Positions 6,919 to 27,000 of a stretch of 64,000 nucleotides of DNA are shown here, piece by piece; within the stretch, counting starts at the first letter, position 1; the number at the start of each line of letters is the position of its first letter. The stretch spans positions 895,835-959,834 of the forward strand of contig BOKX01000001.1 in the NCBI GenBank assembly GCA_016861205.1. Reading direction: 5' to 3'. The position numbers were made by a program, and so were the translations under genes. The DNA comes from Patescibacteria group bacterium. Lineage in GTDB: Bacteria; Patescibacteriota; Microgenomatia; UBA1400; PJMF01. The notes below the pieces were generated by a model that made no database searches, had not been told where the DNA came from, and was given only the letters and a program-made list of their open reading frames with translations.

Positions 6919-8709
6919 TTACTGACCGACCCCTTGCAGGTACTTGGCTGACCAAGGAATGTAGTTTGATGTGTAAACTTCCTCGCGGAGCACTTGGCCG
7001 GTTTTGTCTTTGACAACATTTTTGAAGCTGGCTCGAATACCGCTGGCTGCCCAGTCAACTTGTTTGACGGTGCCGGCTGGCAGAGAAGGGTCGGGAATGT
7101 ACACGGCTGGTGGGGCCGGTCTGGCATCCCAAGTCTTGTGGTCAACGATTTCTGTAGTTCGGCCATCAGAAGTGCCGTAAAGTTCAACGCGCATGTACAG
7201 TTTTTTGCTGTCGGTTTGGGTGTGAATCAAGATGTGGTGGCCAGTATCGTTCTTAAATCGCAAGTCAACATCACCGCTGTACACGGTAGCGTCGACACCT
7301 GGCTTGCTGTCGAGTTCATAGTAACTAACGCGGTAACTATGCGCGCGACGCTTGGTGACTGGAAGACCGGCGTTGAGCACCGCTCGGAAAGTGGTGGTGC
7401 TGACTTGGCAAACGCCACCGCCGTCGCCAAGAACGGTTTGGCCACTGCGGATCACGTAGGCCGGTTGGAAACCAGTTTCTTTTGACACGTCACCTAAGGC
7501 TTTGTTAAACGAAAACTCTTCGCCAGGCTTGACCAGGTAGTTGTTGATTCTGGATGAGGCTAAAGCCACGTTGTGGATACGACTGGGGATTGAGTGGGCG
7601 TACTCACTTTCGCCAAGACCAATTCGTTCCTGAATACCCAACTTGTTGGTTTCCCCGAGTGATCGAGTTGGAGAGCTGGTGCTGAGTGGTAGTTCTTTCT
7701 CGAGTTGCTTAGTTTTAGAGGTTGGATCTAATGCCTCAAACTCAGCCAGTGACTGCTCGAGGGTGGTTTGAAAAGTGGCTGCATCAAGCTGAAGCCCATC
7801 ACGCGGCGGTGTGAAAGCGGTGACTTGCAGTGTGTCAGGATTGTAAGTGAACTCTGGTTCTTGAGGTTGCCGATCAATTTGTTTGGCAATCGATTGGGTT
7901 GTTTCTTCAAGTTTGTCTTGGTTGGTGCCTGTTGGAAAGGCGAGCCACCCAATCATGTCGCGGTCGCTTACGGCCGTTCGATACTCCCCATTCTTAAAAA
8001 AGATTGATTTACCAATTAATTTTAACGATCTATCCCTGGCTTGTTGCTGTTCGGTCTCGCTGAGCGGGGGTTGGGTAGCTTTAATAACGGCGGACCAGGT
8101 TTGGTTTTCTGGGCCAATGTTTTGAGCCAAGTTTGTCAAGGTGGCGGCTTCGTCAACCAAGAGACCTTGTTTGCCTGGCCGGATTTCTAAGCTACTAGCC
8201 ACACCGCTAGTCTTGAGGATTGCTGCAGGAAGTTCTCCAGGATCTTCAACCTGGGCGGCGAGAGTTTTGACGAACTCGGCCAATTTATCGGGATCAGCTT
8301 GGTACTTCGGTTGGTACCGAACGCCCTGATACCAGGTTTGAGCAATGATGAAGGGGCGGAATCGCCACTTGCCTTGGCGACCGTGTTGGTATGCCTGGCC
8401 AAGAGTGGTTTCAAAGTCATAACTAAACCCGAGTTGTGCGGAACTGGATGACAGGCTGGTGGTGTTGGCTGTGAGTGTGAGAACAGTGTCGGGAAGTGGG
8501 GAGAGGTTGTCAGCAATTTTGGCTCGCGCTTGCGAAAGTGTTAGACCACCAACGGGGACTGAATCGATCATGACACCTGGGTAGAAGCGGTTTTGAAAGT
8601 ACCAGAAAAAACTGACGGTGCTCACCAAGCCCAGGCTTAAACCCAACAAAATGGCCCAGCCCAGTTTTGGCATAATTTCTGTCTTCACCTTTGGTTTTGT
8701 TTTCGCCAT
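6919..8709 (-). CDS. VanW-domain protein with N-terminal membrane anchor
   Basis: VanW signature ...GDGGGVCQVSTTTFRAVLNAGLPV.... The ORF track extends to 8826, but the likely true start is the ATG at 8709 (MAKTKPKVK...), followed by the TM helix LGWAILLGLSLGLVSTVSFFWYF. The longer extension would overlap the divergent neighbouring gene. Confidence 0.75.
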   Translation of the reverse strand: MAKTKPKVKTEIMPKLGWAILLGLSLGLVSTVSFFWYFQNRFYPGVMIDSVPVGGLTLSQARAKIADNLSPLPDTVLTLTANTTSLSSSSAQLGFSYDFETTLGQAYQHGRQGKWRFRPFIIAQTWYQGVRYQPKYQADPDKLAEFVKTLAAQVEDPGELPAAILKTSGVASSLEIRPGKQGLLVDEAATLTNLAQNIGPENQTWSAVIKATQPPLSETEQQQARDRSLKLIGKSIFFKNGEYRTAVSDRDMIGWLAFPTGTNQDKLEETTQSIAKQIDRQPQEPEFTYNPDTLQVTAFTPPRDGLQLDAATFQTTLEQSLAEFEALDPTSKTKQLEKELPLSTSSPTRSLGETNKLGIQERIGLGESEYAHSIPSRIHNVALASSRINNYLVKPGEEFSFNKALGDVSKETGFQPAYVIRSGQTVLGDGGGVCQVSTTTFRAVLNAGLPVTKRRAHSYRVSYYELDSKPGVDATVYSGDVDLRFKNDTGHHILIHTQTDSKKLYMRVELYGTSDGRTTEIVDHKTWDARPAPPAVYIPDPSLPAGTVKQVDWAASGIRASFKNVVKDKTGQVLREEVYTSNYIPWSAKYLQGVGQ

Positions 8710-8782
8710 AATAACCACATACACTCTACCTTGAAGTAGGTAAAGTGTGGTACTATTGTGCCGAACTATCGGTCTTTCGTCC

Positions 8783-10654
8783 ATGACTAATGCGCCACTG
8801 CCCACCCCGTCCCAACCTCCTGTCAAGACACCCCTGCCGCCCAGCGGGTTGGTACCTCAAGTTCAACCCGGAATGAAGCCGCCCACTCCGCCCGTGTCGC
8901 CAGCTCCAACTGCTCCAGCCAGTTTGCCTCCATTGCCAGTTAAGCCAGTTGCTGAAGCTGTCCCGCCAGTTGCTCCAGCCCCAGTGGCACCAACCGCACC
9001 GCTCCCACCTGTTGCGTCTGTTCCACCAGTTTCAGCTGCTCCGAGCATGCCGGCTGCCGTTGGTCAGACTCCAACTGGTTTGCCCCAAGCTGCCAGACCA
9101 ACTATGCCCCCTCCAGCCGCTGGTGCCCCGCCAGCCGGTTTGCCACCAGTTGCTGTGCCGGGAAAACCTGGCCCAGCCACACCGCCTCCGCCAAAGAATC
9201 CACCAACTGCCTCAGCTGGTGGAGCAGCTGGTAAGTCACCGATCGCGGCCGGACCCAAAAAATCAATTTTGCGCTTTTTGCCGTTTGTGGTGATTGCCCT
9301 ACTTATCATCGGAGTGGTTGGCTTTTTAGCGATGCGATTCCTGAATGGCGGTAGTAACACTCCCAGCACTTCTGGAACAAAAACGCCCAACCAAGGTGGG
9401 GCAGCAGCTAGTGCGAAACCTACCAACAAGCAGGTTACCCTGACCTATTGGGGTTTATGGGAACCGAGTGAAGTCATGACGCAAGTTTTGAAAGACTTCG
9501 AAACAGCCAACCCGGGCATCACCGTTCAGTATGTTAAACAATCTCCCAAGGACTACCGAGAGCGGTTACAAACCGCCATTGTCTCGGGCAATGGTCCAGA
9601 TTTGTTCCGTTTTCATGCCAGCTGGGTGCCAATGTTGAAAGCTGAGTTATCACCCATGCCGGGTAGTGTCATGTCTTCAGCTGAGTACCAGAAAACGTTC
9701 TATCCAGTGGCTGCCAAACAGCTCCAGCTGAATGGCCAGTTTGTGGGTATTCCGTTGATGTATGACGGGTTAGCTTTGTACTACAACAAGGACGTCTTGC
9801 AGACAGCTGGTGTGGAACCACCGACCACCTGGAGTGGATTGCGAACGTTAGCTACTCAGCTGACGGTGCGGACCAGTGGTGGCAGTATTGAACGAGCGGG
9901 ATTAGCAATTGGGACTGCTAGCAATGTTGATCACTTTTCAGACATTATTGGTTTGTTAATGCTCCAAAACGGCGCTGACTTAACCAATCCAACCACGGTT
10001 GAGGCGCGTGACGCTTTGACGTTCTACACCAACTTTGCCAAAGTTGACAAAGTTTGGGACAGTACCTTGCCAAACTCGACCACGGCTTTCGCGCGTGGCG
10101 ATGTGGCCATGATGTTTGCCCCAACTTGGCGTGTTCACGAGATTAAAGCTATGAATCCAAATCTAAACTTTGGGATCGCGCCGTTACCCAAACTGGCTGA
10201 GACCCAACTGGCTTGGGCTAGTTACTGGGCCGAAGGCGTCAGCGCCCAAAGTAAAAACAAGGACGATTCTTGGAAGTTGCTTAAGTACTTGAGTTCGCCA
10301 GAGATTATGCAGAAGCTGTATTCTTCCCAAAGCCAAGTGCGCAGTTTTGGTGAGCCCTACTCTCGAGTGGATTTAGCAACGCAGCTGGCTGATGATCCAT
10401 ACGTAGCTCCATATCTGAGCGATGCGCCAGCGGCCCAAGGTTGGTACCTGAGTTCCAACACGTTTGATAACGGTATCAACGACCAGATCATCAAGTACTA
10501 CGAAGATGCCATTACGGCAGTCGCAGTGAACAGTCGAACGGTTTCTGATGTGGTGACCACTCTTGATCAAGGGGTGAAACAAGTTCTGCGTCAATTTGGG
10601 GTGCCGGTTACTTCGACTGGATCGACAACCACTGGTGGAACCACCGGCCGTTAG
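8783..10654 (+). CDS. Extracellular solute-binding protein (family 1-like ABC substrate-binding protein) with a Pro-rich N-terminal linker and a TM anchor; orphan (no permease or ATPase nearby)
   Basis: Body pattern ...TLTYWGLWEPSEVMTQVLKDFETANPGITVQYVKQ...GPDLFRFHASWVPML...VGIPLMYDGLALYYNKDVL... is typical of SBP_bac_1. Roughly 150 aa of PPxP repeats, then the hydrophobic helix FLPFVVIALLIIGVVGFLAM. The ATG at 8783 (MTNAPLP...) is preferred over the GTG at 8747. Confidence 0.7.
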   Translation: MTNAPLPTPSQPPVKTPLPPSGLVPQVQPGMKPPTPPVSPAPTAPASLPPLPVKPVAEAVPPVAPAPVAPTAPLPPVASVPPVSAAPSMPAAVGQTPTGLPQAARPTMPPPAAGAPPAGLPPVAVPGKPGPATPPPPKNPPTASAGGAAGKSPIAAGPKKSILRFLPFVVIALLIIGVVGFLAMRFLNGGSNTPSTSGTKTPNQGGAAASAKPTNKQVTLTYWGLWEPSEVMTQVLKDFETANPGITVQYVKQSPKDYRERLQTAIVSGNGPDLFRFHASWVPMLKAELSPMPGSVMSSAEYQKTFYPVAAKQLQLNGQFVGIPLMYDGLALYYNKDVLQTAGVEPPTTWSGLRTLATQLTVRTSGGSIERAGLAIGTASNVDHFSDIIGLLMLQNGADLTNPTTVEARDALTFYTNFAKVDKVWDSTLPNSTTAFARGDVAMMFAPTWRVHEIKAMNPNLNFGIAPLPKLAETQLAWASYWAEGVSAQSKNKDDSWKLLKYLSSPEIMQKLYSSQSQVRSFGEPYSRVDLATQLADDPYVAPYLSDAPAAQGWYLSSNTFDNGINDQIIKYYEDAITAVAVNSRTVSDVVTTLDQGVKQVLRQFGVPVTSTGSTTTGGTTGR

Positions 10655-10718
10655 ATCCGGTTTTGCATCAACTTCATGTGCAAGTTTGGTTTGCGGTTAG
10701 AGCGGCTATAATAGGCCG

Positions 10719-11618
10719 ATGGCATCGTTATCGACCCAAGTTTTAGCGACCGTGGCCTACTGCGATCAGTTTCAGTTTCCTTTGACGCTCAAAGAAATTC
10801 ATTGGCGGTTGGTGTGGCAACCAGCGTCATCCAAGTCAAAGCCAGAGCAAGTTCCATCGTTAGCCATGGTGCGAACAGCGGTGGAGAGCCTAGTCAAACA
10901 TGGCCAGCTGGCTCGACAAGGCTTGTACTTTCAGTTGGCCAGCTCGCCAAACTGGCAACTGACTCGAGACAGACGTACCAAGGAGAGTGAGCGTAAGTGG
11001 AGTTCTGCTCTGGAGTTAGTGGCTCAAGCCAAGCGGATTCCTTGGATACAAGGAATAGCGGTGACTGGTTCACTGGCGATGAACAATGCCCAGCCAGACG
11101 CTGATATCGATTTTATGATCGTGACCGAGCCAGGCCGTTTGTGGCTGACTCGCTTGTGGGTTACCCTGTTAGCCGTTCGAGCTGGTCGGCGCCGATCTTG
11201 GCACGCTGAAGAGCCCGAGAGTTGGTGTTTTAATCTATGGCTCGACAGCGATCACTTGGCCATGCCCAAAACCCTACAGTCTGTGTATGGCGCGTACGAA
11301 GTAGTGCAGGCAGAGTGGGTGTTTGATCGAGCTCAGATAGCAGCTCGTTTTTACGCGGCGAACAGTTGGATTAAAAACTGGTTGCCAGCCGCGAGTGCTG
11401 ATTTGTTGGGGGAGAAAGAACCTGTGCCGGTGAGGCCACCTGCCGCAAATCCAATCTTAAACTGGTTGGAAAAAGTTGTTTTTAGCTGGCAATTCCACTA
11501 CATGAAACCCCACATGACTCGAGAAAGAGTGGGGGAGAGTTGGGCATTTTTTCATCCGCGTGACACCAAAAAACAAGTTGAGGCGGCTTGGCGAAGAGCT
11601 TGGAAGGATACACCATGA
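10719..11618 (+). CDS. Pol-beta-superfamily nucleotidyltransferase domain protein
   Basis: Minimal nucleotidyltransferase motif GS-x9-DxD (VTGSLAMNNAQPDADIDFMIV). No other recognisable domains. Confidence 0.55.
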   Translation: MASLSTQVLATVAYCDQFQFPLTLKEIHWRLVWQPASSKSKPEQVPSLAMVRTAVESLVKHGQLARQGLYFQLASSPNWQLTRDRRTKESERKWSSALELVAQAKRIPWIQGIAVTGSLAMNNAQPDADIDFMIVTEPGRLWLTRLWVTLLAVRAGRRRSWHAEEPESWCFNLWLDSDHLAMPKTLQSVYGAYEVVQAEWVFDRAQIAARFYAANSWIKNWLPAASADLLGEKEPVPVRPPAANPILNWLEKVVFSWQFHYMKPHMTRERVGESWAFFHPRDTKKQVEAAWRRAWKDTP

Positions 11619-12094
11619 CGACTGAATACCATTTTTTAACACCAGATTTAACCCAAGCTCTACAAGCAGCAAGGAGTAGGGGAGAGGTTGTGGTGCTAGT
11701 GACAGGAGTTTTTGATGTCCTTCATGAGGAGCATGTGGCTTTTTTGCGAAAAGCCAAAGCGTTGGGTTGGTTGTTGGTTGGGGTTGAGTCTGATGTGCGA
11801 GTTGCTGAAATGAAAGGGCCATCCCGGCCTGTTAACCCAGCCCAGAGACGGGTATCGACACTTGAAGAACTGCAGATTGCTGATGCTGTGTTTGTATTGC
11901 CAGATCACTTCAACACGCCAGCAGCTCATGAAGCGTTAATCGCCGAAGTTCGCCCGCGTTACTTGGCAGTGTCTGCTCATACGGCTCACCTCGATAAAAA
12001 ACAGGCGATTTTAGCGAAACATGGTGGAGAAGTTAAAGTTGTGCATGAGCACAACCCTGCTGTTTCCAGCACAATTTTGTTGGCTCAAGGTTGA
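11615..12094 (+). CDS. RfaE domain II-like heptose-1-phosphate adenylyltransferase/cytidylyltransferase-fold protein
   Basis: HxGH-type motif VTGVFDVLHEEHVAFL. Strong resemblance to the HldE/RfaE C-terminal domain (KGPSRPVNPAQRRVSTLEELQIADAVFVL...GGEVKVV...SSTIL versus [29 protein letters not shown]...GGEVLVL...STTNI). The ATG at 11615 overlaps the upstream stop as ATGA, indicating translational coupling; the ORF track start at 11588 is the alternative. Confidence 0.7.
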   Translation: MTTEYHFLTPDLTQALQAARSRGEVVVLVTGVFDVLHEEHVAFLRKAKALGWLLVGVESDVRVAEMKGPSRPVNPAQRRVSTLEELQIADAVFVLPDHFNTPAAHEALIAEVRPRYLAVSAHTAHLDKKQAILAKHGGEVKVVHEHNPAVSSTILLAQG

Positions 12095-12139
12095 CCGCAC
12101 GTTCTTGCTATACTGAGGTAACACAATACGGGAGGTGGT

Positions 12140-12466
12140 ATGCAACTCACACGACACGCGAGCTTAGTTGTTTTGGCAGTAGCGATGAGTGGCGCGCTCT
12201 TGACTGGTTGTGGTTTGACAAAAACAACGACACCGGCTGCTCAGCCAGCGACAGGTGGGGCCCCTGCCGCCGAACAAAAAGTGGGAGATACCACTAAAGT
12301 TGGCATTGTGTCAGAAAGTAGTGGCCGCTTTTACCTCAATGTGACTGGACAACCACCCCAAGAAATCGATAGTTACAGCGTCGACCTATCTGGGTATGTG
12401 GGACAGTCGGTGACTGTGACTGGTCAGTTTAGTGGCAATACCTTATTTGTTGGGAGTATCAAATAA
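12140..12466 (+). CDS. Small lipoprotein (lipobox LLTGC)
   Basis: Signal peptide MQLTRHASLVVLAVAMSGALLTGCGL with a lipobox Cys. 108 aa. Confidence 0.6.
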   Translation: MQLTRHASLVVLAVAMSGALLTGCGLTKTTTPAAQPATGGAPAAEQKVGDTTKVGIVSESSGRFYLNVTGQPPQEIDSYSVDLSGYVGQSVTVTGQFSGNTLFVGSIK

Positions 12467-12467
12467 T

Positions 12468-13559
12468 ATGGCCCAGCCGCAGTGGCAATTTGGCATTGGG
12501 ACAGTGGTGACCACCATCGGCCTGTTGGTAACGGGGTGGTGGTTGATGCTGGTGGTGACACCCGGCCAAGCGGCTGGTTGGCAGCAACGGCTGGAGCTGA
12601 CCATTCGTGAGTGGCGGCTCAGTTTGCCAGGGGATAAATTGGGTGCCGAAGTGCTGCAGGTTGCCGGACATCACCTGGCTGAGTACCCGATTGAAGACCT
12701 TTCGTTTGAACTGTCAGCTACCATAATTGATGCTGATACTCAGTCAGTTGTCACAACCGAATCGAGTGCACACGGAATGGTGATGTGGCCAGTTGGTGGG
12801 CAGCCATTTCAGTTGGACTTAATGGGCCAGTCAAAGTGGGAGTTGCAAGGTTTGACCTTTGAGCCACAAGGCCAATTTAAAGCTGATCATCATAATCTGT
12901 ATCTCAAGTTGAAGGAGCCAATTTGGCCTGTTAAGGGTTTTTATGTTCTGGCAGAGGATTGGGTGGCGTGGCCGTTGCCAGTGGCTGGGCTGGGTAAGAT
13001 GAGTAGTTTTGACTGGACCCAACTTGTGACCCAGTTGGCGTGGTCGCCAGCAGAGAGTGTGGTGGTGGGACCAGAACGACTGTTGCGAACAACAGCCACG
13101 GTATCAGCTGAACAGCTTCAAGCTTGGCTTGGTGACACTCAATCAATTCGATTTCAACCCACGACCGTGACCATTTGGGTTCAGCCAGGAACCTGGGCTG
13201 TCCGCCAAGTTGAGGTGCCCTTTCAGGTAGCTTTTGTACTACCGCCTGTTGGGGTAGGTCAGTCGGACCAGCCGTTTATTCAAACCGACACCTGGCAAAC
13301 TGCCAAGGGCACTTTGAGAGTCATGATTAAACCGACGGCCAACTTTACCCCGATTTCTTTTCCGACTGCCCCACAACGGATCGGTGACTTTTGGCAGCCG
13401 CTGGAGCCGCCGGTGGAAAGTTCTGATAGTGGTGCTGTGTTGGGGGTTGAGCTGCGAGCGCCGGGTCAACCGAACTCACGTCCAACTGAGTTGCCGTTTC
13501 TGTCCACTTGGCAGAAAAACCTGTTGCGCGTCCATGGTTTTGTGGTCGACGAGCGCTAG
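12468..13559 (+). CDS. Hypothetical membrane-anchored protein
   Basis: Start ATG at 12468 (MAQPQWQ...), 1 nt after the upstream stop. N-terminal TM helix IGTVVTTIGLLVTGWWLMLVV. The remainder is Trp/Gln-rich and unrecognised. Confidence 0.5.
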   Translation: MAQPQWQFGIGTVVTTIGLLVTGWWLMLVVTPGQAAGWQQRLELTIREWRLSLPGDKLGAEVLQVAGHHLAEYPIEDLSFELSATIIDADTQSVVTTESSAHGMVMWPVGGQPFQLDLMGQSKWELQGLTFEPQGQFKADHHNLYLKLKEPIWPVKGFYVLAEDWVAWPLPVAGLGKMSSFDWTQLVTQLAWSPAESVVVGPERLLRTTATVSAEQLQAWLGDTQSIRFQPTTVTIWVQPGTWAVRQVEVPFQVAFVLPPVGVGQSDQPFIQTDTWQTAKGTLRVMIKPTANFTPISFPTAPQRIGDFWQPLEPPVESSDSGAVLGVELRAPGQPNSRPTELPFLSTWQKNLLRVHGFVVDER

Positions 13560-13580
13560 GCCCTGATCTATACTTGATGC

Positions 13581-14276
13581 ATGGCTGATATTTTCTCAGT
13601 TCGAGAGTTTGAGTTCCCGTATCGCTATAAATTTCCCGGTCAGGCGAGTAATGAGCACATATTGTTTGTGATTCGTGAAAACCCAGTTATGCTGACTGCC
13701 AGGAGAACAGCAGTGGTCATCGCAGCGATAGCGGTGCTGGTGGTGGGGTATTTGCTGGAACAGTTGCTGCTGAACTTGACTGGTCCAGTGGTGGCCAACT
13801 TGGTGATGGTCGTGAGCTTGGTGCTGGCACTTGGTTTCGGGGTGATTGGTTGGTGGTGGGTGAGCGTCCTGTGGCAGCGAAGCTTAGCGTTGGTCACGAC
13901 CATGCGGTTGATTAAGTTTATTTATACAACTCCGGCTAATCGGCACAGCCTGGCTTTACCGCTGGATATGATTGTCGACACGGGTGCCTACAGCAAGGGT
14001 TTCTTGCAGGCGTTTTTTAAACTGGGAACGTTCACAGCTCGATCGAGCGCCGCTAGTTCAGGGGCAGCCACCGACGATCCAGAGCGTGTAAACAAAAAGT
14101 ACTTTTACATTGAGAACATTGCCATTGCTGAAGATTTGCAACACTACGTATCCAAAGTTCTATATGCATTTCGCCACCATCATGACCAGCTGGCTACTTT
14201 CCGACCCTTCATTCCCCATCTTAAAGGCGACGCCCGCAAAGAATTCATGCGGCAGTATCCAGAGTACTGGAGCTAA
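13581..14276 (+). CDS. YdbS/YdbT-like membrane protein with a bacterial PH (bPH_2) domain
   Basis: Two TM helices (VVIAAIAVLVVGYLL; VVANLVMVVSLVLALGFGVIGWWWV), followed by the segment LVTTMRLIKF...LALPLDMIVDTGAYSKGFLQAFFKLGTF, which matches the bPH_2 fold pattern. Confidence 0.5.
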   Translation: MADIFSVREFEFPYRYKFPGQASNEHILFVIRENPVMLTARRTAVVIAAIAVLVVGYLLEQLLLNLTGPVVANLVMVVSLVLALGFGVIGWWWVSVLWQRSLALVTTMRLIKFIYTTPANRHSLALPLDMIVDTGAYSKGFLQAFFKLGTFTARSSAASSGAATDDPERVNKKYFYIENIAIAEDLQHYVSKVLYAFRHHHDQLATFRPFIPHLKGDARKEFMRQYPEYWS

Positions 14277-14281
14277 GTAAC

Positions 14282-17200
14282 ATGGTGACTGAACTATCTG
14301 CCAGCCCCCAGCCAAGTGAGTCAGTTGCAGCAACCAAGGTAGTGAAAGTTGAGTCACCTGTCGTTGTGCAGAGTACTGGCAAGCCCAGCGAGAGCCAACC
14401 TCAGACAGACTCCGATCCTGAGCTGAAGGAAGCCATCAGGGCATGGGCAGCTTGGGGAGATTTCGAGGCAAAAAAAGAAGTGATCTTCGGACTGACACAG
14501 AAGCTACTAACCACGCTTCGATACCACCGGCGCCATTTATCTGAAGATGAGTATCGAGAAAAGGTGAAAAAAGACGTTGTTCCACTTTTGCTGTTTCCCG
14601 ACAGGCAGCCCCTGCGCAGTTGGGCGGATGTGTTTGGAAGTGAAGATGCGGGCCGGTTGTTTCCTTCCTCGACCGATCGGGAAGATAGAAATTACCGGTT
14701 GGTGCAGGCTGTTTTTTCAGACCCTGAAGTGCAAGCTTTGATTCCCCCCGATTTGCTGGTTGAGTCAATCAATCAGGAACTTGATCTCGGTGGTGACAAG
14801 CCCTGGCGAATGATGATGTTGCTGGTAGCAGAGTCGATGATGGCGACTCAGTTCTTTTTCTCGCCAGAACAGATCAATCAACCAGGCGGAGCCAAGCCGG
14901 TGCTGATGAGGGAACAACTGAATCCGCTCACGTACGCGTTAACAAAATGGTTCATGCAGAATGACGAACAAGCATTTTTTAAGTTGCAGTATGACTCTGA
15001 TGCTTTGCGGGTGGTGACGGCTTACGCTGATATCTACGGTTTTTTGGACCCTAGCACACCTGATGGTCGTGAGCGCCTCATGCGTCTCGACTATGCGGCC
15101 TTAAACATGCCCTGGTATCGTGATCACCGGGTGCAGCCCAAAATAACGTTTGAGTCAGGTGCCTTTCAAAAGACACAGTCACATTACCTTAAATCGCTCA
15201 AGAGAGTGCCTCAAAAAGTTGATGAGTACTTACGAGCCAAAAAGACAGAAGCTGAGCTTGTTTCACCAGGCTACTCCGCCGACTACGAAGCAAGAGTGAA
15301 ACACCAAGCAGAGTTGGGTAGGTCTAACTTAGAGTCGTTCCGAACTCGACGCAACCTTCGTCAAACACTCACTATGCTGTGGCAGCACTATCTTGGTCAA
15401 GAATGGGGTTTGGTTGAACGGGCTTTGAAGCCCCAGCCGAAGACGGGCGAGAAGTCTGCCACTCAACCAGCGATGCTGGCTATGCTCGAAATCGAGAAGT
15501 GCCTGCAACGAGAGCGCGACTCTTTTCACTCGATTTTTTTGCGCTTAGAACGCATCTTAGCTGAGCAGAGCAAACTAACATTTTCACACAAAATTGAAAA
15601 CAGAACCCACAGGGTAGCTGTGACCATGCTGCTAGTGGAGAGTTGTTACTTGATCGCTGTTGAAAACGCTCGAGCGGGGGACGCTGGGCGGCTCAATAGA
15701 ATTTACGGCCAATTTTTGGAGCGGTATGGGGGAAAAATTGACAAGCTGTGTGACATTGACCCTTTTGCCAATAGCCAAGTTGAGCCAAAGAAGCTTGGTG
15801 CGTTTGATACTGCCGATTACGAACGCCGCTTAGCACATGCAAACCAAGTTCTAAGAGCTTCTCCCAATGCTGGGTTTATTGATGCCGAGATGATGGAAAA
15901 CTATGCAGTTTATGAAACTCGAGTGAGAGCCATTCAGCAAATCATGAACCAGATGAGGCAACTGACTGCGGATAGCTACCAGGAGGAACGTTTTCAGAAA
16001 ACCGGCGACTACCTTGATTACTATCACTGGAAGCAACTGCCCGAGTTTAGTCGATTTGCATCTTGGCCATTTTTGAGATTACTCTTGCCGGCCATGATTA
16101 TCACTCTCAGTTCACCAATCGTTATTGGAGATGAGTACAGTGAAAGTTTGAGTAAACCGGTGCCAAACATGTTATTTGGCATTTCATTAGCGGTTGTTAT
16201 TACTTCAGGCTACTTTCTTTTTCTTGAGAGAAAACGCAAAGAACGGTTCATGAACTTAGACGTCTCGATGGTTGATGAGTTACGTCGGGTAAAAATTGAG
16301 GATGCTGACGCAGACGAAATGCTAGCTCGGGTTGCGCAAGCTGCTGAGACCGCGCAGGAAACTTTGATTGCAGGCGGTGATCGGCGAGACTTTCTGCGAT
16401 TTTTTAGCGAACAGTTAGTCGCGATCACAGCTATCATTGCGGTCATCACGGCTCTGTACTGGATGGGAACACAAGACAATTTGTTTGAGCTTGAAGACGC
16501 TCCGAAGCTGGCTAACGTACTCGGTGTTGGCGAATCAGAGGCGAAAGAAGTTAAACCCGAACAAGAAGAGGGTAGTTTTGGCGACGAGACTTTGGATGAG
16601 AGCGGATCTACAAACATAGAATCTTTGTCTGCGACGCTCAACATTGAGAATAAAGATTTTGTATCGCCACCACCCAGTATTCTTCTCAATTACCGCGGGT
16701 CAGAGCGACCGCGGTTTGCCGGTGGCAATGTTTGCACGGTACGGCCAGACCAGCCCAGACTTGAGTGTTCAGTCGGAGAGCAGTTGCCACCTGAGTTAGC
16801 AGCGATGCGAGTGGTTGAAGCTGATGACATGACCGAGTTCTCTTCAAGAGTCGAGAGTTATGTAAGCCAAGGGTTTTTAGTGCAGCAAGTAGGGCAGAAG
16901 AACACGTTCTTTGAACCCATAGCCCAAACCGTTCCTTATCAGTTGGTTGTTTTTCGAGGTGATGGCGCCAGTGGAAGCTTGGGTGTGCAGGTTTGGGAAT
17001 CTGGCTTGGTAGTAATTGAGGGTGAGTTTTATCGAGCGGCTTTAGTATCTCAAGTAACAGATGAGCAATCGAGCGTTTTGCCAATGACAGTTCCGGCTAG
17101 TGAGTCACCGAACTTGGATTGGGAGACCATTGCTACCGATCCCGAACTGCAGAACTTCAATGAACTGGTGGCTTTTGTACGTGGCCTGCTGGAGATGCGT

Positions 17201-18622
17201 GCCTCATATTTAGCAGAACGTAACCCGGAAGATATTCAAGAAGAGCTTCGTGCTGCATCTGGATCGCGGTCGTGGCTGAGTAACCGAGAAATCTTAGACC
17301 AAGTCACACTGTGGTTATCGAGTCGAGGTTATAGCTATGGGTTTGGGACGTTTAATCTGAATGAACACGCTACCTATGATTCCGCGCTGCGAGACTTGCT
17401 GGCCCAGTCCCATCTGGATTGTGACTCATGGTCGTTGCTGAGTATGTTGGCTGTTCGTGGTGCACAAACAGGCCAGCTTAACCCAAGTTTTCCGGTGTAT
17501 CTAAGATCTGGATTTGCTATTGATAGAACAACTTACCCGAGTGGCTGGATAGGCAATCAAGGGCACGTAGTTCAGTTGTATCAGGAGGTTGATGGTGAGT
17601 GGTATGTGTACGAGACTACACTGCCTGAAGCTGAGAACCAAGCTGAGGTGGTCGCAAATGATCACAACGTAGAGTTGTTGCTTGGGGCACTGGTTTCAGC
17701 CGGTTTGTCAGGCTCAGCGTTGCTTGGTGTTTTTGGGTATGTTGCCAGAGAACGGTTTAAACGTGGAAAACGGCAGCCATCTCGGCGCCGCAAGCCACCA
17801 ATTATTGATGCCCGGGCCCGGTCAGTTGTTCGGGTGACTGGCGAGGATTGGCCAGACGATCACGATCCCAAGGTGACGCCGCAGGAGGCCGAGCTGGTTT
17901 ATGGTGAAACACCAGTGGAACAGGAAGCTCCTCCAGTCCAACTGCCCGACGAAGTCAGCAAGCAGATTTTGCGCTTAGCCAACTTAGTTGAGAGTGTCAG
18001 CTTAGAGACGAAACCCGTAGTCGCCAGAACTCTTGAAGAACTATCGTCTTGGCTTCACCTCAATCACGCCGACTGGCAAACAATGCGTACCATCAGTGGT
18101 CAGCCGGACCTAACAAAAATTGTGGGAGTAGCCTACTCGAGTATTATGGAATCAGTGCGCCGAGTTGACCCACATAACTTCAAGATGCGTGACCACGGAC
18201 TGAGAGATCACTATCAATCACTTACTCGTCGGTACTTGGTTGAGCCTAGTCGGCCATGGGCTGACGTAATCGCTCGAGTAGCTCCCAAGGTAGAGCAAAG
18301 CAAAACCGTGCTGAACGATCCAGAGTGGTTGCAACTAGTTGGCCAGGCAGTGTGGGAACTAGAGCAACAACTACGCCAAACCGAAGAACAGCTGGTGGCT
18401 GAGCTCAACCTCGGCGCAGTTGATGCAACAGCGCAAACCGGTGTGGCTACCGAGAATGTTACCGAACAGCTGAAACTTGCCTTGGTCACTGCCCAACATG
18501 ACGCCCGTGAGGTACCTACTAAGGCATTAATGGCGCTCAAAGTTCGGGCGGCAGCTGATCTATGTCAAGCTCTCCTCGACTGGCTCGAAGCAGAGTGGAC
18601 AGCCAGGGGCTTTACTCAGTAG
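14282..18622 (+). CDS. Giant polytopic membrane protein (1446 aa) with a transglutaminase-like (papain-fold) Cys/His core in a predicted extracytoplasmic loop
   Basis: Intact 4.3-kb ORF. Hydrophobic helices near aa 590-640, ~720 and ~1115. Putative catalytic Cys at 17420-17422 (HLDCDSWSLLSMLAVRG) and His at 17564-17566 (GNQGHVVQLYQEVDGEWYVYETT). These resemble the transglutaminase-like core C...H...D pattern. Confidence 0.65.
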   Translation: MVTELSASPQPSESVAATKVVKVESPVVVQSTGKPSESQPQTDSDPELKEAIRAWAAWGDFEAKKEVIFGLTQKLLTTLRYHRRHLSEDEYREKVKKDVVPLLLFPDRQPLRSWADVFGSEDAGRLFPSSTDREDRNYRLVQAVFSDPEVQALIPPDLLVESINQELDLGGDKPWRMMMLLVAESMMATQFFFSPEQINQPGGAKPVLMREQLNPLTYALTKWFMQNDEQAFFKLQYDSDALRVVTAYADIYGFLDPSTPDGRERLMRLDYAALNMPWYRDHRVQPKITFESGAFQKTQSHYLKSLKRVPQKVDEYLRAKKTEAELVSPGYSADYEARVKHQAELGRSNLESFRTRRNLRQTLTMLWQHYLGQEWGLVERALKPQPKTGEKSATQPAMLAMLEIEKCLQRERDSFHSIFLRLERILAEQSKLTFSHKIENRTHRVAVTMLLVESCYLIAVENARAGDAGRLNRIYGQFLERYGGKIDKLCDIDPFANSQVEPKKLGAFDTADYERRLAHANQVLRASPNAGFIDAEMMENYAVYETRVRAIQQIMNQMRQLTADSYQEERFQKTGDYLDYYHWKQLPEFSRFASWPFLRLLLPAMIITLSSPIVIGDEYSESLSKPVPNMLFGISLAVVITSGYFLFLERKRKERFMNLDVSMVDELRRVKIEDADADEMLARVAQAAETAQETLIAGGDRRDFLRFFSEQLVAITAIIAVITALYWMGTQDNLFELEDAPKLANVLGVGESEAKEVKPEQEEGSFGDETLDESGSTNIESLSATLNIENKDFVSPPPSILLNYRGSERPRFAGGNVCTVRPDQPRLECSVGEQLPPELAAMRVVEADDMTEFSSRVESYVSQGFLVQQVGQKNTFFEPIAQTVPYQLVVFRGDGASGSLGVQVWESGLVVIEGEFYRAALVSQVTDEQSSVLPMTVPASESPNLDWETIATDPELQNFNELVAFVRGLLEMRASYLAERNPEDIQEELRAASGSRSWLSNREILDQVTLWLSSRGYSYGFGTFNLNEHATYDSALRDLLAQSHLDCDSWSLLSMLAVRGAQTGQLNPSFPVYLRSGFAIDRTTYPSGWIGNQGHVVQLYQEVDGEWYVYETTLPEAENQAEVVANDHNVELLLGALVSAGLSGSALLGVFGYVARERFKRGKRQPSRRRKPPIIDARARSVVRVTGEDWPDDHDPKVTPQEAELVYGETPVEQEAPPVQLPDEVSKQILRLANLVESVSLETKPVVARTLEELSSWLHLNHADWQTMRTISGQPDLTKIVGVAYSSIMESVRRVDPHNFKMRDHGLRDHYQSLTRRYLVEPSRPWADVIARVAPKVEQSKTVLNDPEWLQLVGQAVWELEQQLRQTEEQLVAELNLGAVDATAQTGVATENVTEQLKLALVTAQHDAREVPTKALMALKVRAAADLCQALLDWLEAEWTARGFTQ

Positions 18623-18631
18623 AATGGAGCT

Positions 18632-19042
18632 ATGGCCCGTTCTACCTCCTCCCAACAAGCGACAACCTGGCTAACCCAGTTATACTTTGTTTTGGCCAGC
18701 CTTCTGGGCTTGCTGTGTCTGGTGATTGGGGTGGCGTCTCTTGTTAACACGCTCCTGATGACCTATGTCGTCAAAGTCAAAGCCCCTCGCTACAGTATGC
18801 CGCCACAACCCTATGTGGAAGTTGCTAAGTTGGAAAAAACCACCGCGCTCACGCCAGATGAAAAAGAGGCCCTGACTCGGTGGCAACAGGACTACGAACT
18901 CTGGGAAAAAGAACAACGTGACTATGACTACGAAGCTGAAAATCGGCGTCGCTCACTAGCATGGTCAATTGCCTTGGTTATCACCGGGGCGCCCGTTTTT
19001 GCTCTGCATGCACCACGCGTGTTTGGTCGCCGCAAAGCGTAG
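18632..19042 (+). CDS. Small two-TM hypothetical membrane protein, last gene of the 12140-19042 operon
   Basis: Two TM helices (LYFVLASLLGLLCLVIGVASLV; LAWSIALVITGAPVFAL). A terminator follows. Confidence 0.5.
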   Translation: MARSTSSQQATTWLTQLYFVLASLLGLLCLVIGVASLVNTLLMTYVVKVKAPRYSMPPQPYVEVAKLEKTTALTPDEKEALTRWQQDYELWEKEQRDYDYEAENRRRSLAWSIALVITGAPVFALHAPRVFGRRKA

Positions 19043-19230
19043 CTAACATGGCTATCAGCTTTCCACTCACTTACACATTCGTCTCACATTGAAGGTTGGC
19101 CTGGTATAGCGTAAAGTTAATCCCAACATGCGACAGTACTTTTCTACCACCGCCATGCAGTGCCAAATCCAAAAACCCGGTGGTGGAGGGGGTCCGTAGT
19201 CGTTAAGTAGTAGTACATAACACAACACAA

Positions 19231-19254
19231 ACCCTCCACACAGGAGGGTTTTTT
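19231..19254 (+). terminator. Rho-independent terminator
   Basis: Stem CCCTCC / GGAGGG with loop ACACA, then TTTTTT. Confidence 0.7.
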
Positions 19255-19298
19255 AGTATCTGCTGGCCGAACAAGTACAGCAGACAGAAAGGAGAGTC

Positions 19299-19478
19299 AT
19301 GACAGACTCTGATCACGTGCCCTATTCTAGGCGAGGCTTAGAAAACCTGGCTGCTGCTCTCAACATTAACACCGCCTACCTCTGGGTTAACCCCGGACGT
19401 GGGAGCCTGGAGCTGCGCGAAGTTGATGATGGTGTCCCAGCCACCGCCGAGCCGACGGCTGGTAGCGAAAAGGAATAG
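19299..19478 (+). CDS. Small hypothetical protein (59 aa) with a strong ribosome-binding site
   Basis: AAAGGAGAG lies 7 nt upstream of the ATG. Product: MTDSDHVPYSRRGLENLAAALNINTAYLWVNPGRGSLELREVDDGVPATAEPTAGSEKE. It is below the 60-aa cutoff of the ORF track. Confidence 0.35.
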   Translation: MTDSDHVPYSRRGLENLAAALNINTAYLWVNPGRGSLELREVDDGVPATAEPTAGSEKE

Positions 19479-19498
19479 GCTGGTGTACATTACTCCTA

Positions 19499-20023
19499 AT
19501 GGAGATTACTGTTGGAACCGATCTCGTACAGTTGCCCTCATCCGAGATTCAAAAATGGCGCCGTCAGCAGCGACTGCAGCTGGGCCAAAACTTCGGTTTG
19601 TCGCCGTCTCCAGGAGAACCAGTCGTAACGTGTAATGCCAAACTTTCCACAGCCGACGAGGCGTCTTTAGATAGCCGAATCAGATCACACTTAGCCACCT
19701 TGCTTCGAGAGAGTGGTGTCGCGCTCTCAGAAATTTGTGAAACAGATCCTCAGTTTCAAATCGCTGTCTACTTGCAGGTGGGGGCCTATATTCATAAGTT
19801 GCAGGTAGAAGCTGATGTCCAGTACTTGCTTATGACTCACCCGCCACTGGTGATAGTTCAAGGTATCGCTCAGCAAGCCGGTGCCGAACCGTATCGGAGT
19901 CCAATTCTTCGGGCGGAGGTAGGCAAGGAGATGGTAGTGGCTTTGATACGGAGTACGTTTACTATTCCTTGGCAGTTTCCAGTCTTTTTACAGTCGTTTG
20001 TTAATAAGCAGTTGCCGATTTAG
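19499..20023 (+). CDS. Hypothetical protein (174 aa)
   Basis: ORF of normal composition lying between the operon terminator and the rRNA promoter. Weak ribosome-binding site. No recognisable motif. Confidence 0.35.
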   Translation: MEITVGTDLVQLPSSEIQKWRRQQRLQLGQNFGLSPSPGEPVVTCNAKLSTADEASLDSRIRSHLATLLRESGVALSEICETDPQFQIAVYLQVGAYIHKLQVEADVQYLLMTHPPLVIVQGIAQQAGAEPYRSPILRAEVGKEMVVALIRSTFTIPWQFPVFLQSFVNKQLPI

Positions 20024-20066
20024 TGGCCAACTTCGGGGGAGGCGGCATTTTCGTTGGTTCAATCTC

Positions 20067-20094
20067 TTGCAATCATCTGCTAAAGTGCTATAAT
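20067..20094 (+). promoter_or_regulatory. Near-consensus sigma70 promoter for the tRNA-Ala-23S-5S unit (TTGCAA-N16-TATAAT)
   Basis: -35 TTGCAA at 20067-20072, a 16-nt spacer, and -10 TATAAT at 20089-20094. This lies about 100 nt upstream of tRNA-Ala. Confidence 0.5.
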
Positions 20095-20195
20095 TCCTTT
20101 CGTTCGGGAAAACTCTACACGCGACATTATGTGCCGTTTGGTCCATAATCCCTCCGCACCGTTTTCGATTTTGACAAGTGAAGATACCTTAAATC

Positions 20196-20269
20196 GGGCC
20201 CTTAGCTCAGTTGGCTAGAGCGCCACATTTGCAATGTGGAGGCCAAGGGTTCGAGCCCCTTAGGGTCCA
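20196..20269 (+). tRNA. tRNA-Ala (anticodon UGC)
   Basis: Cloverleaf folds by eye. Acceptor stem GGGCCCU/AGGGUCC with discriminator A. D-arm GCTCAGTTGGCTAGAGC. Anticodon stem CCACA/TGTGG with loop TTTGCAA (anticodon TGC). T-arm GGTTCGAGCCC. No encoded CCA. Confidence 0.88.
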
Positions 20270-20480
20270 CAACTAACACAAGTCAAACACCGCTGACTGA
20301 ATTTCAGTTATCGCTGTTTGCTTTGTGCTCTACGGAGTGTCAAAGCAAAGTACCTGATTTTCAGGTGCTCCTTAACAAGTGAAGAAGAAGTCAGATCCAT
20401 GTGATTAGCATCACATGGATTAATAAACATACTTTGTTTATCTCAATTAATTTTATTTTTTGACTTAAGTAAAGTAGGTT

Positions 20481-23440
<2,960 letters not shown>

Positions 23441-23540
23441 TCAAGACTTGTTTGCTGCAAAAGTAACAAGTTTGACTTTTTCTTCACTGTTTTAGGAGCA
23501 GCTGCTCGGAATTCTTTCCGAGATCAGGTACTCAACTAAA

Positions 23541-23674
23541 GCGTTTGGTGCTGGTCTCTAGAGCGAGGTGGAACCAACTCTTCCCTTCCCGAACAGAGTC
23601 TTGAAACGCCTCAGCGGTGACAATAATTCCCGGGCAACTGGGTGTGAAGATAGCTCGAGGCCGGCACCAAGCGC
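23541..23674 (+). rRNA. rrf: 5S ribosomal RNA
   Basis: 5' GCGTTTGGTGCTGG pairs with 3' CCGGCACCAAGCGC. Internal CCCTTCCCGAACAGAG and AAACGCCTCAGCGGTGACAATAAT match conserved 5S loop C and helix IV regions. A T7 run (terminator) follows immediately. Confidence 0.75.
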
Positions 23675-24023: not shown

Positions 24024-27000
24024 CTAGATACCTAGATTTGCACCAGCCGGCATAGCCATGGGCTTTTCCATGACCAGAGACTGTTCTTGCGGCTTCTGGC
24101 GGGTGTCGAGTTGATCAAAACTCATGCCGGCGCCTTTTTGGACATAATCCGGATGTGTGACACTGAGCTGGTAAAGGCCTTTTGGTGCAAACAGTTGGTA
24201 TTTACCCCAGGAGTCAGTGATCGCGATAGCTGCGAGCTGATTAGCCTCGGCTCGTCCCAACCGGACCACCGCGCCTTTAATTGGTTGGCCAGCGGCAGTG
24301 GTAATCTTACCGCTGACAGCGGGAGGGGTCAGCCAGGTGCGTGCTTTCCAAGCTACTACAAGCGCGTTAGCAGCTGCAATTCCGATGTTAATTAATGATG
24401 GTGAAACTACGGCCATAACGATCGTAAAGGCGGATAATGGCAAGGCTACTTTGCCGAAGCTGAGACGAGTTGCCCAGCGTTGCCACCAGGGTAGGCGAGC
24501 TTCACTCTTCTGGCCAGGTTGGCGAGGGTCAACTGGTACCACAAACAACTGTTCTTCTCGAGCTGACTTAACACTGAACGGTTCACCCCGATAGAAATCG
24601 CGCAGGGTTTGGTAAGGTTGACGTGGGTGGCGACTGGGGAAACTATACTGCTGGTGGGCGGCCGCTAAGTTGTACGTGCCAGCCGGCAGTTTCACACCCT
24701 GGTACACACCTTTAGTGTCCGATACCACTGTCTCGGTGACGGGAGCTTCACCGGTTTTTGTTTCTTTGGTAACAGTCAGCAATGCAAATGGCACAGCCTC
24801 AAACTGTTGGCTGCCAAGGACCACTCCTTGAGGTGCATGGTGGGCTAAGAAGCCCATGGCTTGTAAGAAGCGAGTGAAAACGGTCCACCAAGATGGTTGG
24901 ACCACGGCCGCAGTGCTGGTGGCGGCTCCTACCGCCGAGCCAGCGGCAGCGCTGGCCCCACTTGCTACGGCTCCTCCTACCGCGCTTCCCACCGCTCCTG
25001 CGGCGGCAGTTACTGATCCAGCTGCGGCTACACTTGAGGCTATGACCGCCGTGGTCAAAGCCACAGAGGCAGCCACCGCGGTGGTGACAACAGCAGTGAT
25101 GACTATGAGTTCGGCTACAAGGGCGCTGACCGGGGCAACTGCTTTGGCTGCTTCAGTGACTGTTGCCACGATAGCTGCGACTTGGTTTGCGAGCGACTCG
25201 GTGGTGTCTTCAGTGGTTTCGCGAATGTCTTCAAGACTGGGCAAAGTCGGTGTAGGTGAGGGATCAACTGCGCCAATGTTGCCACCCTCACTGTCGAGTG
25301 GTTCTGTCGGTCCAGAGACGATGGGTGGGATTTCTCCTGGGGTGAGTACAGAGCCAAACGCGTTGTAAGAAAGATAGACAGTCTGGGTAGTGGTCTCATT
25401 ACCTGCATTGTCTCGAGAAATGATATTTACTCGATACCAACCATCAGTTAGTGGGAAGGGGGCGGCGACTGAGAAAGAGGCTGTCTTGGCGACGCCGTTC
25501 TCATCAGTCACGGACAGGTTATCAACATATGATGAGGCGTAGTCGGTGTAGACCGCACTGGGGCCCTGAGGGTCGACAGCATTCACCAGTTGTTGAATGA
25601 CCAAGCGAACTTTGTTCGGGCCGGCGGACACCTTGTCAAAGGTGTCTTGGCTACCGTTTGAGTTGTTGCGCGTGCTGCCTTCATATGGATCTCTGATTTG
25701 ACCCGAGAAGACCGGAATCCGGTTGAGCAAACTCATGGTGTACTCGCCACCGTTGGTGACTGAGCCAATGGTGTTGAGGCTGAGTCCATTGATGCTTGGC
25801 GCGGTGGTGTCGAGCTGAAACTCTGCCTGGACCGTCTTGAGGTTACCGGAGGTATCAAAAATATCAACTGTCCACTTGTGTTTACCCTGGGTGAGGCCAC
25901 CTTCGGTACCTAATTTTTTGAAGTAGACAGAGATCTCGTCGTTATTGGGGTCGCTGTCATTCTCATTGCGGAAAACAACTCGAACATTGTCATCGTCGCG
26001 CCAAACGTACTCGGCTGAGCCATTGCCATTGGCCGGGATATCACTGACCGAAAAGTTCCGGTTTTTGTCACCATCAAGTGTCACGGTGTAAGAGCCAACT
26101 CCACCCGTGGTGGTCGTTGATTTTGAGAAGGTGAGTGTTGGGGTGGTGTTGTTAATGGTTCCTGTTGCTGACTTGAAGTCAACACTGCCAGTGCCTTCCG
26201 CAGCGGGGGTCTCGCTGTCGCCAACTTGACTGATACCACCGGTGCCGGTCATGCCAGTAATGGCCCAGACCTGGAAGCCGTTAACAGTGGTGATGCTGGT
26301 ATCGGCATCTGCCTCAACTTTGGTGATGGCGCCAGCACAGTCTGCAGTCACTTGAGCCAGACTAGTGGCATTCGGACAGATGATGACTGACGTGTCACCA
26401 GCGGAGTAGGGAACATACAGCGTGTGGGTAGCGGCGGCACCGGGAGCTGAGGTCACATTTTCGATCACTGCTTTGCGATTGGTGGTGTCGACGTCACCAG
26501 CCACCGTTGACCAGTCTCGGTCGGTAGTTAGGTTGACCTCGATACTTGAGATGGGATAGCTATTGCCTGTATCAATAACTTGGACAGTTTCGGCACTATT
26601 GTTAACACCATTGCCGCTGCCGTAGGTGATGTTTGTGCCACTGGTAGTTTGAGCCTGGATTCCTGACAAATTGCGAATCTGATACAAACTCGCCAAGCGC
26701 TGAAAGAAGAAGAGGTTGGTTTCACCACTGCGGGTTTCTTCCCAGACTGCTCCCACGCTGCCAGTGCTGAGTCGAGCCATGGATGGTCGGCCAGTACCGC
26801 TATCCAGATCGAGGGTGGTGGTGGAGTCCCAGAGAAGTGTGCCATCGGTGCGGACGCCCTGTACAAAGTGGTGTTCAGCCACACTATCTGAAGCAATGAC
26901 AAAGATCCCGTTGTCACCATCTTCTTCCATCTCAATCAGACTGTTATGACCGAGCAGACTGATGGCACTCACGTCAGCTCCCCACACTGAAGTGAAAGAG

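Follow-up and report, generated by a model that had tools for sequence, protein, structure and literature searches.

Whether closely spaced genes for membrane and secreted proteins build a single machine is the question raised by five genes, termed g1 to g5, on a 64,000-nucleotide (nt) stretch of DNA from a Patescibacteria group bacterium (assembly GCA_016861205.1, contig BOKX01000001.1, positions 895,835 to 959,834 of the forward strand). This whole stretch is called the window, and coordinates refer to it unless a locus is named. Genomes of the candidate phyla radiation (CPR)/Patescibacteria are small and encode largely unannotated membrane proteins, a matter of interest for how these cells build their envelope and contact their hosts. 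A first-pass annotation had seen in g1 to g5 a possible "previously undescribed envelope machine", a proposal that the gene-neighbourhood data do not support. The answer given here, with a confidence only slightly above even, is that the five genes are an evolutionary mosaic, probably co-transcribed, and not a dedicated five-part machine. They are not regarded as a unit because their conservation across related loci is graded and not joint. Three of the five are the tail of a block common to a group of ultra-small CPR/Patescibacteria.

All five open reading frames (ORFs) lie on the forward strand. They encode a lipoprotein of 108 residues (g1, 12140–12466), a protein of 363 residues with one N-terminal transmembrane (TM) segment or signal anchor and an extracytoplasmic body (g2, 12468–13559), a bacterial pleckstrin homology (bPH)-domain membrane protein of 231 residues with two TM segments (g3, 13581–14276), a giant of 1446 residues with four TM segments (g4, 14282–18622) and a DUF5671 protein of 136 residues with two TM segments (g5, 18632–19042). 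ORF calling bears out these five co-directional frames at the coordinates first given for them, and hydropathy agrees with the initial view that every product is membrane-associated or secreted.

Graded conservation of the five genes

Conservation of gene order was examined in about 100 loci, comprising 44 from GTDB genomes collected with the g3 alignment, 48 from JGI metagenomes collected with the g1 alignment, and single-protein contigs. ORFs were classified with hidden Markov models (HMMs) and phmmer, and the counts come from fragmentary contigs of metagenome-assembled genomes (MAGs) with simple ORF calling. They refer to 40 non-redundant g1-bearing loci, each denominator being the number of loci with enough flanking sequence. 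Nucleotidyltransferase and cytidylyltransferase genes lie directly upstream of g1 in 24 of 31 loci, and tRNA-Ala lies downstream of it in 18 of 24. g2 follows g1 in 15/34 loci (a count adjusted for three ORF-start artefacts) and g3 is found downstream in 11/25, while the giant is present in 4/24 and g5 in 2/24. All five genes occur together only on the near-identical contigs L001–L003, which represent the window's own lineage. Gene order across related genomes, which the first-pass annotation had named as the check on its proposal, thus gives a mixed result: the five genes are not jointly kept, but a narrower link between g1, g2 and the giant survives.

This link is seen in three distant giants with readable context, all of which lie downstream of g1-g2, with tRNA-Ala some 250 nt beyond the giant. 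In L051, g1-g2-g3 is followed by an ORF of 772 residues and then by the giant, without g5; in L053 and L054, g1-g2 is followed by the giant without g3 and without g5. The ORFs found after g3 in eight other lineages (192–400 residues) are unrelated to each other and to g4. That they, or the 772-residue ORF of L051, might be degraded giants was considered and rejected with the giant HMM and with Pfam. Lineages bearing the giant are scattered among giant-less sisters in a rough neighbour-joining tree of the nucleotidyltransferase, a distribution suggesting that the giant has long occupied the slot and has been lost repeatedly.

Another subclade (L060–L080; e.g. L060 10299–11675) carries, some 10–20 nt after g1, a RadA/Sms-like gene in place of g2 or g3. 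The possibility that this ORF of about 460 residues is a divergent g2 was rejected, as by its motifs (a zinc finger and a Walker A) it looks like RadA/Sms and as it reaches an hhalign probability to g2 of 0.14%. As the pairing of g1 with RadA/Sms illustrates, tight spacing of membrane-protein genes in compact CPR genomes does not by itself count as evidence for a dedicated system. Many of the contigs compared (L008, L012, L016 and others) bear the title 'uncultured Pseudomonadales bacterium'; their gene content and synteny are those of Patescibacteria, and the titles look mislabelled.

Divergence between sister strains

The same locus is present on three Logan contigs, the near-identical L001–L003; read sets that carry this contig include DRR258781, DRR258782 and SRR27901409. 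Against the 96%-identical L001, the ratio of non-synonymous to synonymous substitution rates (dN/dS) is 0.18 for g4, with similar values over its four regions, and 0.014 for g5, from which it follows that both are real genes under purifying selection. Identity to L001 is about 100% over positions 8000–14500, ranges from 90 to 100% per 100 nt within g4 (14600–18600), falls to 62–87% over 18600–20100, which holds g5 and the next ORFs (synonymous divergence dS > 1), and is again about 100% over tRNA-Ala and 23S. This profile marks the g4-g5 region as a hot spot of recombination or divergence just before the ribosomal RNA (rRNA) operon.

The giant and its ectodomain

The four TM segments of g4 lie near residues 597, 630, 707 and 1132 according to hydropathy. 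The positive-inside rule places residues 1–596, 649–706 and 1155–1446 in the cytoplasm and 731–1131 outside, because ERKRKERF follows the second TM segment and RERFKRGKRQPSRRRKPP follows the fourth. About two thirds of the protein (∼950 residues) would therefore be cytoplasmic, with an N-terminal arm of about 596 and a C-terminal arm of about 290 residues. To our knowledge, an architecture with cytoplasmic arms of ∼600 and ∼290 residues has no known counterpart.

When 1.84 billion cluster representatives were scanned exhaustively with HMMER, only four distant relatives of g4 were retrieved, namely P0122 (1471 residues), P0123 (1554 residues), P0124 (1660 residues) and the fragment P0125; a word-index protein search with the full-length protein returned a single 96%-identical copy. 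The giant is therefore not a pure orphan, since relatives, though distant, exist and three of the four occupy the same place in the genome. P0125 is split over two adjacent ORFs on a 2.1-kb contig (L055 60–2098), by a frameshift or an assembly error. The full-length members of the family are collinear (alignment A3), and the ectodomain alone is detectably similar, with 24–32% identity in phmmer.

This ectodomain (16472–17674 on the forward strand, residues 731–1131) is the one stretch retained throughout the giant family. Its first half is rich in beta-strands and carries two conserved cysteines (C818 and C829), and its second half is alpha/beta. Invariant in the five ectodomain sequences are D1046-C1047 (codons 17417–17422, +), H1095 (17564–17566, +), E1102-V-D1104 (17585–17593, +) and a T-L-P motif. 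In an AlphaFold2 (AF2) model built from five sequences, with a mean predicted local distance difference test score (pLDDT) of 66, C1047 starts a helix at model residues 257–272, H1095 stands one residue before a strand at 306–311, and D1104 lies in a turn before a strand at 317–322. A cysteine at the N-terminus of a helix and a histidine beside a beta-strand are the arrangement of papain- and transglutaminase-type enzymes.

The giant had at first been called "transglutaminase-like". It shares with the thiol enzymes of this broad class (Transglut_core, BTLCP/LapG-type Peptidase_C93, TgpA-type) the order Cys...His...Asp and an extracytoplasmic, membrane-anchored domain, and the aspartate before the cysteine (D-C-E/D) is reminiscent of BTLCP-type motifs. 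It differs from them in lacking any profile, PDB-profile or fold match, and the spacing of nine residues from H1095 to D1104 is shorter than is usual in transglutaminase- and papain-like families. Pfam gave no match at E ≤ 1 for g4 and its segments and none at E ≤ 10 for the five family ectodomains, and NCBIfam gave none; PDB sequence and profile searches with g4 and alignments A3 and A4 returned nothing significant or relevant; and Foldseek with the pLDDT-66 model found no transglutaminase- or papain-class match. The ectodomain alignment (A4) likewise found no match in metagenome contigs or in IMG/VR viral contigs. What remains of the original label is the conserved D-C...H...E-V-D pattern, given the mediocre model through which the fold was compared, and "transglutaminase-like" is for g4 an unconfirmed idea at the level of a motif. 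The ectodomain is plausibly a thiol-dependent hydrolase or transferase, and the giant belongs to no described family.

The extracytoplasmic pair g1-g2

g1 has a signal peptide with the lipobox LLTG-C24, followed by a Pro/Ala/Thr linker and a conserved domain of about 60 residues. Cys24 is invariant in 16/16 homologues, all of which have Gly or Ala at position −1 (alignment A6). The mature domain resembles DUF5818, with 15.1 bits for the window protein against a cutoff of 27; 12 of the 16 members of the family match this model at E ≤ 0.1 (best 5.5e-5), all of them under the gathering score.

g2, with its single N-terminal TM segment predicted from hydropathy, belongs to a fast-evolving family whose members are linked by phmmer at 1e-5 to 1e-52. 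Two homologues pass the DUF6612 cutoff of 23.7 bits (L004 with 24.7 and L005 with 26.2 bits), and 4 of 15 family members match this model. The window protein itself has no DUF6612 match in Pfam, its homology to the L004 and L005 proteins being established through phmmer chains. PDB sequence and profile searches with the g2 (A5) and g1 (A6) alignments found nothing significant.

The two proteins thus resemble secreted proteins and lipoproteins of the DUF6612 and DUF5818 types, in that g2 homologues reach the DUF6612 threshold and the mature domain of the g1 family matches DUF5818 recurrently; they differ from these in that both window proteins stay below threshold. Judged by profile scores, the relationship of g1 and g2 to these two families, themselves uncharacterized in Pfam, is borderline. 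No paper on DUF6612 or DUF5671 turned up in the literature searched. Members of the g2 family are very divergent except for a shared C-terminal tail, ELPxL(S/T)xxQxxxLxxYG (window 13480–13556; alignment A5), which may be an interaction or sorting motif.

A bPH-fold membrane protein across Patescibacteria

The search with g3 gave 342 homologues at E ≤ 0.01, of which the best 120 are 58–73% identical, apart from one near-identical copy. Identity is mostly 54–73% across Patescibacteria genomes of the Pacebacteria/Woesebacteria type. The sources of the homologues are named Patescibacteria or Pacebacteria, and the relatives on genome contigs include Woesebacteria and Paceibacterota. In alignment A1 the TM helices are variable, and an N-terminal motif, FxFPYxYKFPGQ, and the entire C-terminal domain are nearly invariant.

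The AF2 model of g3 (31 sequences, pLDDT 87.2) begins with a strand at the N-terminus, followed by a TM hairpin and then by a beta-sandwich capped with a helix. The hairpin covers residues 45–89 by hydropathy, its helices spanning 35–100 in the model; strands over residues 102–180 and a helix at 183–199 make up a PH-like domain at 102–199. Arg-rich flanks on both sides of the hairpin and a short acidic loop place both termini and the PH domain in the cytoplasm. Foldseek against the PDB ranks 3dcx (E 6.8e-4) and 3hsa, crystal structures on which the bPH family was founded, first and second, and lower matches include the bPH structure 3b77 (rank 16, E 0.12) and eukaryotic PH/GLUE domains. None of the Pfam bPH models (bPH_1 to bPH_6) matches at E ≤ 0.1, NCBIfam gives no bPH match, and a PDB profile search with A1 finds nothing significant.

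The initial description of g3 as a bPH membrane protein is therefore upheld by its predicted fold and by its two-TM, YdbS-like topology but finds no Pfam or NCBIfam match. Families with two TM segments and an intracellular PHb domain, forming oligomeric rings, have been described (Xu et al. 2010, PMC2817789). With YdbS-type proteins (PHb/bPH_2, DUF304; e.g. B. subtilis YdbS and E. faecalis DdE), g3 shares two N-terminal TM segments and a cytoplasmic PH-like beta-sandwich with a helix cap. It departs from them in its size (231 against about 140–160 residues), in its place outside the Pfam bPH models, in the conserved N-terminal FPYxYKFPGQ with a strand predicted at 27–32, before the TM hairpin, and in a conserved C-terminal tail, FRPFxPxLKGxxRKxFMxQYPEYWS. 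Moreover, no YdbT-like partner gene adjoins g3, and an identity mostly of 54–73% throughout a lineage is unusual among bPH proteins. The model assigns g3 to the bPH fold, of which it is a new family-level variant, beyond the current Pfam models. If it behaves as YdbS-type proteins do, it may assemble into an oligomeric cytoplasmic ring at the membrane.

Outside the clade, g3 is flanked in 10 loci by an RluB-like pseudouridine synthase and RarA; its other neighbours there are an ATP-binding cassette (ABC) exporter pair, a UvrD-type helicase, BipA, a GT87-like glycosyltransferase and a LytR_C protein. The most divergent homologues, with about 40% identity (L045–L047, e.g. L046 6371–10705, including goat-gut MAGs), directly follow the ABC exporter pair (ABC_membrane + ABC_tran), which recalls bPH proteins linked to peptide export. 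The g3 family is a candidate core function of the Patescibacteria lineage that is invisible to Pfam.

Roles and rival explanations

Under the mosaic reading, g1 would be the 3′ member of a block found in one Patescibacteria clade (of the Pacebacteria/Woesebacteria type) and composed of a solute-binding protein, a nucleotidyltransferase, a cytidylyltransferase and g1 itself, with g2 often beside g1 but dispensable. g3 would be a strongly conserved Patescibacteria bPH membrane protein with its own, independent role. g4 would be a rare, fast-evolving, four-TM giant occupying a slot prone to recombination, with this block on one side and the tRNA-Ala-23S-5S operon on the other, and g5 a lineage-specific small membrane protein sharing the slot of g4. 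The giant would expose an extracellular domain of 400 residues with a conserved Cys/His/Asp site and couple it through the membrane to about 950 residues of fast-evolving cytoplasmic sequence. It may act at the cell surface, in remodelling or in contact with a partner or host, most likely in concert with the g1-g2 pair found ahead of it in every readable context.

Several points weigh against the mosaic reading or limit it. The nucleotidyltransferase tree is star-like and weak. The region from ValRS to 23S is syntenic clade-wide, so adjacency by itself does not tell whether genes are functionally coupled or have simply inherited their order. The association of the giant with g2 comes from four lineages, and the chance of finding g2 in three independent relatives is about (15/34)^3 = 0.09. 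Many contigs end just past g3 at the rRNA operon, and giants could be under-sampled for this reason. The argument for a probable co-transcription consists solely of gene spacing and the absence of strong internal terminators, and the catalytic reading of the ectodomain is drawn from a motif and a pLDDT-66 model.

Three other explanations were weighed against the mosaic. The proposal first made for the locus, a dedicated trans-envelope complex of five components for surface remodelling or attachment, is considered improbable. It accounts well for the tight spacing closed by a single strong terminator, for products that are all membrane-bound or secreted and match no known system, and for the g1-g2-g3-X-giant order retained in L051, but it has to reckon with five genes that co-occur solely in L001–L003, with a g3 that two of the other three giant loci lack and a g5 that all three lack, with the recurrence of g5 in L004 without a giant, with g3 genes spread across Patescibacteria in unrelated contexts, and with RadA replacing g2 after g1 in another subclade. 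A narrower module, nested within the mosaic reading and compatible with it, would unite g1, g2 and the ectodomain of the giant outside the cell, with g1 and g2 as partners or substrate handlers and g3 and g5 as bystanders; it is a possibility held tentatively. All four giant loci with context (the window, L051, L053 and L054) have g1-g2 directly upstream, compared with 15/34 overall, the three components all face outside, and conservation within the giant is confined to the ectodomain. Yet g1-g2 exist without the giant in most lineages (at least 11) and hence cannot depend on it, and in so tiny a sample of giants the pattern could also reflect the common ancestry of a syntenic block. Least probable of all is that the giant, together with g5 and the pair of small ORFs that follow, is imported, strain-variable cargo (defence, phage-derived or mobile) unrelated to the envelope. 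The divergence hot spot with its mosaic identity to L001, the differing and unrelated ORFs that fill the same slot in other lineages and the extreme rarity of the giant family would suit such cargo; on the other side, PADLOC and PHROGs lend it no support, IMG/VR viral contigs hold no relative, the GC content is unremarkable, there was no sign of an integrase, of repeats or of a disrupted tRNA, and four TM segments with a conserved ectodomain befit a resident surface protein.

The mosaic reading, preferred over these alternatives, leaves room for a more ambitious joint proposition, entertained here as doubtful though worth stating, in which g1, g2 and the giant would be an undescribed, Patescibacteria-specific module comprising extracellular Cys/His/Asp enzymes of a new family, and g3 would represent a new, near-universal and possibly essential bPH family. 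If this were true, a g1-g2-giant module at an rRNA-adjacent hot spot could serve the host or partner contact of episymbiotic cells. The locus offers two uncharacterized families of interest for CPR biology, the bPH family of g3 and the rare giant with its candidate catalytic ectodomain.

Transcriptional organization and database matches

The five genes are probably co-transcribed, possibly with three upstream genes, as inferred from their spacing and from the absence of strong internal terminators. The intergenic gaps measure 1, 21, 5 and 9 nt; the spacing of 1–10 nt initially reported thus holds for three of them but not for the junction of g2 and g3 (13559/13581, 21 nt). Shine-Dalgarno-like GGAG/GGGAGG motifs precede g1, where the site is strong, g2, g4 and g5, and no clear one precedes g3. 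No convincing sigma-70-like promoter was found before g1, where TTGACC and TATACT are only 12 nt apart and where the promoter scan lists none. Nor does the run begin at 12140, since the closely spaced co-directional run reaches back upstream to 8747.

The view that the five genes are not a recognized system has stood up, with no match as a known system in Pfam, NCBIfam, PADLOC or PHROGs. The sole match above a curated threshold among the five proteins is DUF5671 in g5 (Pfam and NCBIfam). PADLOC gives zero matches for the five products, and PHROGs gives weak matches only, to functionally uncharacterized families, with g1 scoring best (E 1.6e-4, residues 10–76).

g5, terminator and conserved non-coding stretch

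g5 has two TM segments by hydropathy and scores 34.2 bits with the Pfam DUF5671 model, against a cutoff of 28.4 (E 2.6e-8). It resembles DUF5671 small membrane proteins in passing the curated threshold and in its two-TM layout, but the alignment is limited to the second TM region (residues 99–129). The sole further homologue among the loci is found in L004 (1e-42), a locus without a giant.

The set had been described as ending in a clean terminator. The hairpin is real and strong, with a 9-bp stem at 19229–19251 followed by a U-tract, but it lies 187 nt beyond the stop codon of g5. It is the best candidate in a 10-kb scan, with a folding energy of −14.3 kcal/mol (z = −4.9; 0/200 shuffles fold as well). 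It closes a non-coding stretch on the forward strand (19136–19262) that is about 98% identical to L001 and that forms a long stem (CUACCACCGCC...GGUGGUGGAG) before the terminator hairpin. In the genes on either side of this conserved stretch, synonymous sites are saturated (dS 3.3 and 1.4). The stretch matches no Rfam family, was not found in the other loci and may represent a structured element of the 3′ untranslated region or else a small RNA.

Flanking genes

Upstream of g1 and on the same strand, Pfam and NCBIfam identify an ABC solute-binding protein gene (8747–10654), separated by 64 nt from a nucleotidyltransferase-like gene (10719–11618), which overlaps by 4 nt a cytidylyl/adenylyltransferase-like gene (11615–12094), itself 45 nt before g1. 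The nucleotidyltransferase and cytidylyltransferase are fused into a single ORF of 440–540 residues in L053 (295–1905), L054 (6585–8210), L060, L061, L066 and L071. The fusion is a Rosetta-stone hint of joint action and would point to the chemistry of nucleotide-activated envelope precursors.

Elsewhere in the window, no paralogues of the five proteins were found, including among two further very large ORFs on the reverse strand (50203–63636, 4477 residues; 24024–28904, 1626 residues), which are unrelated to g4. The 1626-residue ORF has several hydrophobic stretches in its C-terminal region.

Downstream, two small ORFs lie between g5 and tRNA-Ala. The variable slot is bounded by the genes for tRNA-Ala, 23S and 5S rRNA (20196–23666, +), identified with Rfam and ARAGORN. 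16S rRNA was not found in the 64-kb window, and the tRNA-Ala-23S-5S operon is thus apparently without a linked 16S. Insertions are present in the 23S genes of relatives: that of L004 contains a LAGLIDADG ORF, and that of L074 extends over about 5.5 kb.

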